64,000 nucleotides of DNA from Escherichia coli (GTDB taxonomy: Bacteria; Pseudomonadota; Gammaproteobacteria; Enterobacterales; Enterobacteriaceae), in NCBI RefSeq assembly GCF_022846255.1, contig NZ_AP025682.1; one strand, 5' to 3'. The number at the start of each line of letters is the position of its first letter. The first letter of the stretch is position 1. Position numbers: made by a program. Below are positions 17,601 through 20,600 of this stretch, piece after piece.

Positions 17601-20600
17601 ACTTTTTGCGCCGGTACGTAGCTGCCGATATACGCCATCAGCGCAATCAACGCGGTCTGGCGCATATAGGTACTTTTACCGCCCATGTTCGGACCGGTAA
17701 TGATCAACATGCGACGCTGCGGCGACAGGTTTAGCGGGTTAGCGATAAACGGCTCATTCAGTACTTGTTCAACTACCGGATGGCGACCTTCGGTAATGCG
17801 AATGCCAGGTTTATCAATAAAGGTCGGGCAGGTGTAGTTCAGGGTATAGGCCCGCTCCGCCAGGTTCACCAGCACGTCGAGTTCCGCCAGCGCGCTCGCG
17901 CTCTGTTGCAACGCTTCCAGATGCGGCAACAGCAGGTCGAACAGCTCTTCATAAAGTTGTTTTTCCAGAGCCAGTGCTTTGCCTTTTGAGGTGAGAACTT
18001 TATCTTCGTACTCTTTCAGCTCCGGAATAATGTAACGCTCGGCGTTTTTCAGCGTCTGGCGGCGCATGTAGTTGATTGGTGCCAGATGGCTTTGCCCACG
18101 GCTGATTTGAATGTAGTAGCCGTGCACAGCATTAAAGCCAACTTTTAACGTGTCCAGGCCGGTACGTTCACGCTCGCGGACTTCCAGACGTTCCAGATAA
18201 TCGGTCGCGCCGTCGGCCAGCGCACGCCATTCATCCAGTTCTTCGTTATAACCAGTCGCAATAACACCACCATCGCGTACCAGCACCGGCGGCGTGTCGA
18301 TGATTGCTCGCTCCAGCAGGTCGCGCAGTTCGGCAAACTCGCCCATCTTCTCACGCAGTGCTTGTACCGGGGCGCTATCGACACCTTCCAGTTGCGCGCG
18401 CAGTTCTGGAAGTTGCTGGAAGGCATGACGCATACGGGCCAGATCGCGCGGGCGAGCGGTACGCAACGCCAGACGCGCCAGAATACGTTCCAGGTCGCCC
18501 ACCTGACGCAGTACCGGCTGTAACTCGGCGGTGAAATCCTGCAATGCGCCAATAGTTTGCTGGCGCTCAAGCAACACGCGGGTATCGCGCACTGGCATAT
18601 GCAGCCAGCGTTTCAGCATACGACTACCCATCGGCGTTACAGTGCAGTCGAGTACGGAAGCCAGCGTATTTTCCGCACCGCCGGCCAGGTTCTGAGTAAT
18701 TTCCAGGTTACGACGCGTCGCGGCATCCATAATGATGCTGTCCTGCTGACGTTCCATAGTGATAGAACGAATATGCGGCAGGGTCGTGCGTTGGGTATCT
18801 TTCGCATACTGCAACAGACAACCGGCAGCACAAAGTCCGCGTGGTGCGTTCTCCACACCAAAACCGACCAGATCTCGGGTGCCAAATTGCAGGTTCAATT
18901 GCTGGCGAGCGGTGTCGATTTCAAACTCCCACAGCGGGCGACGACGCAGGCCGCGGCGACCTTCAATCAGCGACATCTCGGCGAAATCTTCCGCATACAG
19001 TAATTCCGCTGGATTCGTACGTTGCAGTTCTGCCGCCATCGTTTCGCGGTCCGCCGGTTCGCTCAGGCGAAAACGACCGGAACTGATATCCAGCGTTGCG
19101 TAGCCGAAACCTTTACTGTCCTGCCAGATAGCCGCCAGCAGGTTGTCCTGACGTTCCTGCAACAGCGCTTCATCGCTGATGGTGCCCGGCGTAACGATAC
19201 GGACAACTTTGCGCTCGACCGGCCCTTTGCTGGTCGCCGGATCGCCAATCTGTTCACAAATAGCAACCGATTCGCCCTGGTTCACCAGTTTGGCGAGGTA
19301 GTTTTCCACCGCATGGTAGGGAATCCCCGCCATCGGGATTGGCTCTCCCGCTGAAGCACCGCGTTTGGTCAGTGAAATATCCAGCAGTTGCGACGCCCGT
19401 TTTGCGTCGTCATAAAACAGTTCATAAAAGTCGCCCATCCGGTAAAACAGCAGGATCTCGGGATGCTGGGCTTTCAGCTTGAGATACTGCTGCATCATGG
19501 GCGTATGGGCGTCGAAATTTTCTATTGTACTCATGGGGTTAAGTCCGGCTCCCTGATGTTAAATGTAGTGTGATGGTTTTTATTTTCGTTGTAATCACAT
19601 AAGGCGCACATGATACCGGAGTTAATCATTTCAGGGGAAGACGCGAAAGGTGAGTTCTTGATGTCGGTTCCGCGAAAAATGCTGCTTTGCAGCTTTTGCG
19701 TGATGACGATGAAACAAGATCGACAAATTCGTCGGTTGAAGAAACCTCCTCCTTCAGAGACATAGTCCCCTTTAAAATTAAGTTGTAATATAAATGCACC
19801 TTAAGAGTATGGAGGCAGCATGTCCGGCAAGCGTATCTCTCGTGAAAAACTGACGATTAAAAAAATGATCGATCTTTATCAAGCGAAATGCCCGCAGGCG
19901 TCAGCAGAGCCGGAGCATTACGAGGCGTTGTTTGCTTACGCGCAAAAGCGGCTGGATAAATGTGTGTTCGGCGAAGAGAAACCAGCCTGTAAGCAGTGTC
20001 CGGTGCACTGTTACCAGCCTGCAAAGCGTGAAGAGATGAAACAGATTATGCGTTGGGCCGGGCCGAGAATGCTGTGGCGTCATCCGATCTTAACCGTGCG
20101 TCATCTCATCGATGACAAGCGTCCGGTGCCGGAGTTGCCAGAAAAATATCGTCCAAAGAAATAAATCTGCCGGAGAGCCATACTCTCCGGCAAATACGGC
20201 GCTTACGCTTTGGTGGCAATCAGGATGGCTGATGCTTTGATCAATGCAATAACGCGCGAGCCAGTGGTGAGTTTCATTTCATCCTGACTTTCATTTGTTA
20301 CCACTGCCACAATTTCAAAACCCGCATCCGTTTTGATATGGACAGTGGCGTTCACTGCGCCTTCGGTGATTGTCGACACGCTGCCAGCAAACTGGTTGCG
20401 AGCAGAGAATTTCAGTCCACAGTCTTCCGTTGCCAGCGTTACCCACGGGGCTTTAATCAGGGCAATCGCTTCTTTCCCTTTCGCCAGACCCAGCGCTTGC
20501 TGGCTGCTGTGAGTCACAATTGCCACCAGCTTTGCACCACCTGCCAGCGTCAGTTCTACTTCGTCATTCACCGCGCCCATTGCTACTGCGCTAACTGTTC

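Follow-up and report, generated by a model that had tools for sequence, protein, structure and literature searches.

The 23-bp element situated just upstream of ygbA in the mutS-ygbA spacer is very probably, judging from its sequence and from the literature, the operator by which NsrR, an iron-sulfur-cluster repressor of the Rrf2 family, controls ygbA, and ygbA only. Rather than a similar sequence, this is the ygbA NsrR operator of the literature itself, already known and ordinary. The 23-mer AAGTTGTAATATAAATGCACCTT, whose end is separated from the ygbA ATG by 17 bp, is the exact reverse complement of AAGGTGCATTTATATTACAACTT, the ygbA entry among the 27 NsrR sites of the 11-1-11 type listed for E. 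coli CFT073 (Mehta et al. 2015; PMC5320621, Table 4). Sequence, gene and position are all the same in CFT073 and in the DNA analysed here, and nothing differs. In that study the site had a PatSer ln(P) of −16.65, compared with the authors' cut-off of −14.28. The original prediction, which placed an NsrR-like element just upstream of ygbA, is matched by this published site base for base, and the coordinates it gave for the 285-bp spacer and for the element were exact.

The window, i.e. the whole stretch of 64,000 nucleotides (64 kb) that was analysed, comes from a B2/CFT073-like E. coli. Several complete genomes, NGF1, M-17 and PSUO2 among them, share 99.9% identity with the part between 19400 and 20250, which was found in 5419 of 5426 genomes. 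The centres of the ygbA and hycB NsrR sites are 7405 bp apart both in the window and in CFT073 (3137982 and 3130577), and this equal distance indicates that the window is collinear with CFT073 here. The literature documents this locus as a hotspot of island acquisition, in agreement with its earlier description as a recombination hotspot. The positions of the genes and of the observed and predicted control elements are given in Table 1. A search of 19400-20300 against Rfam gave no RNA family match. A small ORF at 19610-19765 was rejected as a gene, since its length (44, 51 or 59 aa) and its C-terminus vary and its start lies inside the mutS promoter. The same ORF is labelled 'hypothetical protein' in other strains.

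Table 1 Genes and control elements around the mutS-ygbA spacer (window coordinates)
Feature	Position	Strand	Description and basis
ygbI	15363-16160	+	
pphB	16211-16867	-	
mutS	16973-19534	-	TIGR01070, 1388 bits
mutS-ygbA spacer	19535-19819		285 bp, genes divergent
mutS 5' UTR	19535-19608	-	74 nt, outside the NsrR unit; K-12 mapping (PMC5580658)
Hfq-binding (AAN)3 motif in mutS 5' UTR	19576-19584	-	AAUAAAAAC, exactly at the mapped coordinates
Predicted ygbA −35 hexamer	19763-19768	+	TAGTCC, matches at 3/6 positions; conserved TTG patch (TAG here, 19763-19765) exactly 17 bp before −10
NsrR operator	19780-19802		Imperfect 11-1-11 inverted repeat, AAGTTGTAATATAAATGCACCTT = AAGTTGTAATA-T-AAATGCACCTT; published site, top matrix match and information-content peak
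Weak NsrR half-site	19780-19790	+	AAGTTGTAATA, 7.3 bits; holds most of the predicted −10 hexamer
Predicted ygbA −10 hexamer	19786-19791	+	TAATAT (TATTAT in most genera), site positions 7-12; T7, A8, A11 and T12 (near-)invariant in 85 loci
Strong NsrR half-site	19792-19802	-	AAGGTGCATTT, 14.3 of possible 15.9 bits (11-bp half-site matrix)
Predicted ygbA transcription start	19798	+	± 1-2 nt, inside the right half-site, 7 nt after −10; site position 19 is A in 82/85 loci
ygbA Shine-Dalgarno sequence	19811-19815	+	GGAGG, read from the sequence; G-rich patch kept at this offset in 85 loci
ygbA CDS (regulated gene)	19820-20164	+	114 aa; NCBIfam NF007713, 268.8 bits (cut-off 234); RefSeq name ygbA
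TOBE/Mop-domain gene	20203-20670	-	
fhlA	20676-22790	-	
hypE	22828-23838	-	
hycB NsrR site	27185-27207		In the hycA-hycB spacer; second-best match in the window; published, ChIP-seq-positive in CFT073

The original prediction was open to being overturned by a poor score against a curated NsrR matrix, and the score proved to be the best in the window. A symmetrised matrix covering the full 23 bp was built from the 25 other distinct published sites, with ygbA left out, and the 64-kb window was scanned with it. The 23-mer was the top match with 21.9 bits, a value to be read with the circumstance that the training sites had themselves been selected by a matrix, which in turn came from ChIP peaks without ygbA. 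The next-best match in the window reached 16.8 bits. The training sites span 12.6-32.0 bits, and the 23-mer falls in the upper half of this range; only 0.005 matches as good are expected per 64 kb under a first-order Markov null model of the window. With a second matrix, made from 15 ChIP-seq-positive sites and leaving out hycB (the other site of the window) as well as ygbA, the 23-mer again ranked first (23.0 bits). By its matrix score, the element belongs to the NsrR operators of the 11-1-11 type.

Self-complementarity is too low in this palindrome to serve as the evidence for the assignment. Viewed simply as an inverted repeat, the element is weak, with arms complementary at 7 of 11 positions, and a plain inverted-repeat search of the spacer with a 6-bp seed found none. 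The core consensus of Rodionov et al. (2005), ATGYAT-N5-ATRCAT, was matched by the 23-mer only with three mismatches, and the window count of such matches (36, with 79 expected) was not above chance. The full 23-bp matrix was used instead because this core consensus did not discriminate.

Further support for the assignment comes from other species. A scan for the YgbA protein with one genome per species yielded 80 loci in about 20 enterobacterial genera (Escherichia, Citrobacter, Salmonella, Enterobacter, Klebsiella, Raoultella, Kluyvera, Leclercia, Lelliottia, Pluralibacter, Phytobacter, Trabulsiella, Rahnella, Hafnia and others). Together with E. coli PSUO2, 81 loci were scored, and the best match within 300 bp upstream of ygbA was taken from each. 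This match reached at least 14.3 bits in 74 of the 81 loci, and its distance to the start codon was 12-25 bp with a single exception (41 bp). The site is kept before orthologous genes in other species. When 85 loci (the 81 and four more E. coli strains) were anchored on the site, most operator positions carried 1.4-2.0 bits of information, compared with about 0.1-0.3 bits in the flanking sequence, a level low enough for neutral positions to be considered saturated. The conservation peak in these loci coincides exactly with the 23-bp operator. The sole other conserved patch upstream was T(T/A)G, located 16-14 bp ahead of the site; its G is present in 79 of the 85 loci. Neighbouring genes changed across about 20 genera, but the operator remained in front of ygbA, which shows that the unit is ygbA together with its operator, not the mutS/ygbA pair.

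A scan for consensus sigma-70 promoters between 19450 and 19900 called no promoter; at ygbA this is explained by the −35 hexamer, which agrees with the consensus at only three positions. The ygbA promoter was deduced from the cross-genus footprint instead of a generic scan (Table 1). The predicted leader would be about 22 nt long, and its folding was not more stable than that of shuffled sequence (z +0.6). In this predicted arrangement the operator would overlap the ygbA core promoter and cover about −19 to +5, including the −10 hexamer and the start site. Occlusion would follow from this overlap, since an NsrR dimer bound over the −10 hexamer and the start site would exclude RNA polymerase. 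NsrR is described in the literature as an [Fe-S] protein and an NO-sensitive repressor; NO would nitrosylate its cluster, the repressor would be released and ygbA would be transcribed.

The two halves of the operator differ greatly in their scores with the 11-bp half-site matrix (Table 1), and half-sites of at least 12 bits occur only five times in the whole window on both strands. Judging from its sequence, the left half-site seems to strike a balance between the needs of NsrR recognition and those of the −10 hexamer. Compared with the half-site consensus, its inner end is TAATA instead of CATTT, and this departure is likely due to the bases doubling as the −10 hexamer. At site position 11, 84 of the 85 loci have A, which fits the constraint of the −10 hexamer; most published NsrR sites have T here. 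The K-12 allele AAGATGTAATATAAATACATCTT, which occupies the same position before the same gene, has three substitutions among the 23 positions and scores equivalently (22.8 bits). The window/CFT073 allele is the poorer palindrome, as the arms of the K-12 allele are complementary at 9 of 11 positions. Alleles within Escherichia vary only at site positions 4, 16, 17 and 20, and their scores are kept (17.6-23.6 bits).

The ygbA site has the 11-1-11 architecture and the signature AAG-TG-AT...AT-CA-CTT in common with the CFT073 operators of ytfE, hcp and hmp. The ytfE operator is a near-perfect palindrome, unlike that of ygbA. The hycB site scores below the ygbA site, with 14.2 bits when hycB is left out of the training set and 16.8 bits when it is included. 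Its place is between two genes belonging to a single operon and not on a mapped core promoter; the promoter on which the ygbA site lies is itself predicted.

Regulation of ygbA by NsrR has been reported several times. Rodionov et al. (2005) named ygbA as an NsrR target on the basis of a personal communication. NsrR/NO-dependent expression of ygbA (Bodenmiller and Spiro 2006; Partridge et al. 2009) and binding of NsrR to the ygbA promoter in K-12 ChIP-chip (Partridge 2009) are both given here as they are cited in PMC5320621. In Salmonella Typhimurium, ygbA mRNA was elevated 31.8-fold in an nsrR mutant (PMC2884951), and according to the text of PMC5320621 ygbA was among the genes most up-regulated with nitrate/NO in nitrate-grown CFT073. 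The view of ygbA as a nitrosative-stress gene is upheld by these reports of NsrR-dependent expression in two species. The ChIP-seq analysis of CFT073, which carries the same allele as the window, did not detect NsrR at ygbA, and the authors considered this a probable false negative (PMC5320621). The CFT073 NsrR protein is identical to that of K-12 (PMC5320621). The B2/CFT073 allele, with its 7/11 palindrome and its negative ChIP-seq result, may bind NsrR more weakly than the K-12 allele.

An alternative, which that negative result would fit, is that the element represents nothing more than AT-rich core promoter sequence of ygbA, i.e. its −10 region, and that the likeness to NsrR sites arose by chance. 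We give this explanation very little credence, even though there is a good −10 hexamer in the left half, the arms are poorly complementary and the 2005 core consensus matches no better than expected. Even under a null model with the spacer's own AT-richer composition, the probability of one such full-matrix match in the 285-bp spacer is only about 6e-5. The most conserved positions, moreover, include the right half-site ATGCAnCTT (C18, A19, T22 and T23), which lies 3' of the predicted −10 hexamer and is not a sigma-70 promoter element, so that the promoter does not explain its conservation. This half-site comes close to the highest possible score of the half-site matrix on its own, and the reported NsrR-dependent expression of ygbA in two species also speaks against a chance resemblance.

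Rrf2-family proteins bind palindromes of similar length, and the element could in principle be the operator of another regulator, such as the Rrf2-family protein IscR, or of a factor with a similar AT-rich palindrome. The likelihood of this is practically negligible, given that the 23-mer scores in the upper half of the bona fide NsrR sites and that the genetics in the literature point specifically to nsrR. The type 1 and type 2 consensus sequences of IscR also show no match to the 23-mer by eye.

An operator of NsrR at ygbA can still be envisaged as a shared bidirectional one, from which NsrR also modulates mutS so that nitrosative stress alters the mismatch-repair capacity. Divergent promoters can in principle couple through supercoiling, and mutS and ygbA are transcribed divergently from one 285-bp spacer. 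Moreover, mutS is down-regulated under stress by other routes, which involve Hfq, ArcZ and SdsR (PMC5580658). The distances within the spacer nevertheless argue against sharing. The K-12 mutS transcript has a 5' UTR of 74 nt (start site −74) with the Hfq-binding (AAN)3 motif ARN1 at −50 to −42 (Chen and Gottesman 2017; PMC5580658). The alignment of K-12 with the window is gap-free in this region, and the finding of the (AAN)3 motif exactly at the expected coordinates validates placing the start of mutS transcription at about 19608. The spacer therefore does carry the mutS promoter, as had been stated in the original prediction, and the operator is located 172-194 bp upstream of where mutS transcription begins. 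NsrR is described in the literature as a repressor of its targets. No other NsrR half-site of at least 8 bits was found in the spacer, the best one near the mutS side having 5.5 bits with the 11-bp half-site matrix. The operator is thus not within reach of both core promoters. The mutS leader did not fold more stably than shuffled sequence (z +0.1). An alignment of mutS upstream regions across genera, tried as a means to delimit the promoter, was uninformative, the Escherichia leader being genus-specific and unalignable with that of the Enterobacter group.

Gene order in other genera speaks against a shared operator as well. Short spacers between ygbA and a divergent mutS are confined to Escherichia (283-286 bp) and the Enterobacter/Lelliottia/Leclercia group (about 510-530 bp). 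The mutS gene is located 1.2-2.9 kb from ygbA in a few loci (Trabulsiella, Enterobacter mori and one other) and is not within 3 kb of ygbA in Citrobacter, Salmonella, Klebsiella, Kluyvera, Raoultella, Rahnella and Hafnia. In those genera the gene upstream of ygbA is one for a sitA-like Mn/Fe binding protein, for a malic enzyme or for a TonB-dependent receptor. In Salmonella, SPI-1 lies between ygbA and mutS according to the literature. The operator persists before ygbA where mutS is more distant or has no place nearby, as in Citrobacter, Salmonella, Klebsiella, Kluyvera, Raoultella and Rahnella, and it is hence not kept together with the gene pairing. The main texts of two NsrR regulon papers do not mention mutS (PMC5320621; PMC2884951), and no title or abstract returned by a full-text literature search for 'mutS' and 'NsrR' suggested a regulatory link. 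The link between NsrR and mutS that the original prediction implied is not supported by this evidence, and a shared operator is highly improbable. We conclude that the operator came to share a spacer with mutS through the accidental gene order of Escherichia and that the adjacency is incidental. It is similarly hardly to be expected that NsrR occupancy, or the divergent transcription of ygbA released by NO, measurably changes the activity of the Escherichia mutS promoter through supercoiling or RNA polymerase traffic. If this were true, the effect of NsrR/ygbA on mutS would make nitrosative stress a determinant of the capacity for mismatch repair. Such a link between NsrR and mutS, if real, would interest those who study stress-induced mutagenesis, but the analysis gave no indication of it.

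With NsrR control confined to ygbA, the analysis makes small additions to what was known. These are the breadth of the footprint, which extends over about 20 genera, and the inferred arrangement of a −35 hexamer, a 17-bp spacing and a −10 hexamer that would overlap the left half-site. For E. coli, the finding means little beyond a correct annotation: ygbA is a textbook member of the NsrR regulon, and its operator had been picked out correctly from the sequence alone.

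When the whole window was scanned with the NsrR matrix, which was built from the published CFT073 sites with ygbA excluded, the second-ranking match, topped only by the operator of ygbA, fell between hycA and hycB (Table). It is not a new site, being the ChIP-seq-positive 'hycB' site of CFT073 that has already been published (PMC5320621); its score was obtained with the site in the training set and is 14.2 bits without it. The two operators lie 7405 bp apart in the window, which is the same distance as in CFT073. The segment between ygbA and fhlA is occupied by a gene with a TOBE/Mop (molybdopterin-binding) domain, which is absent from K-12-type strains, where ygbA is directly adjoined by fhlA.

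Table. Features located in and around the mutS–ygbA spacer and in the hyc region
Feature	Position	Strand	Location	Characteristics
Hairpin CCGCGAAAAATGCTGC-TTT-GCAGCTTTTGCGTG	19669-19701		Mid-spacer, between both divergent promoters	Imperfect
ORF	19610-19765	+	Start within the mutS promoter region	51 aa
TOBE/Mop-domain gene	20203-20670	-	Flanked by ygbA and fhlA	
NsrR site AAATGACATTTCATCGGCATGTT	27185-27207		Spacer between hycA (26657-27118) and hycB (27243-27854)	Matrix match, rank 2, 16.8 bits

Within the mutS–ygbA spacer, the hairpin has a folding energy of -18.8 kcal/mol on the + strand (z = -3.0) and is roughly preserved in the seven alleles compared from Escherichia, which include a single compensatory pair. 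It could be a leftover of an insertion/deletion event at the mutS–ygbA hotspot or a protein-binding site. The small ORF is probably not a gene, since its length varies among strains (44, 51 or 59 aa) and its C-terminus is not conserved; its counterpart in K-12-type strains carries the RefSeq label 'hypothetical protein'.

At the ygbA locus of the platypus isolate E. coli A2 (L083; NZ_CP028772.1, 2220-4099), a truncated truD is fused via an IS3 element to a position 88 bp upstream of the ygbA gene. This locus lacks mutS together with all that normally separates it from truD, and the NsrR operator and ygbA are kept. The spacer reaches 510-530 bp at seven loci of Enterobacter, Lelliottia and Leclercia (L027, L039, L042, L049, L066, L073 and L079). 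The spacers of this length carry a conserved coding-like stretch on the mutS strand, upstream of mutS and ending with TAA, the putative product of which by eye resembles a SymE-like small protein.

Sequence divergence across 18035-20164 is unusually high within E. coli. Identity with K-12 is 92.4% over the first 1500 nt of mutS, 81% in the ygbA-proximal half of the spacer and 95.2% in ygbA, the product of which has 114 aa in the window versus 117 aa in K-12. For the spacer, identity is no higher than 80-90% in about 55% of the complete genomes of E. coli. This divergence is in agreement with the known mosaicism of the mutS surroundings.
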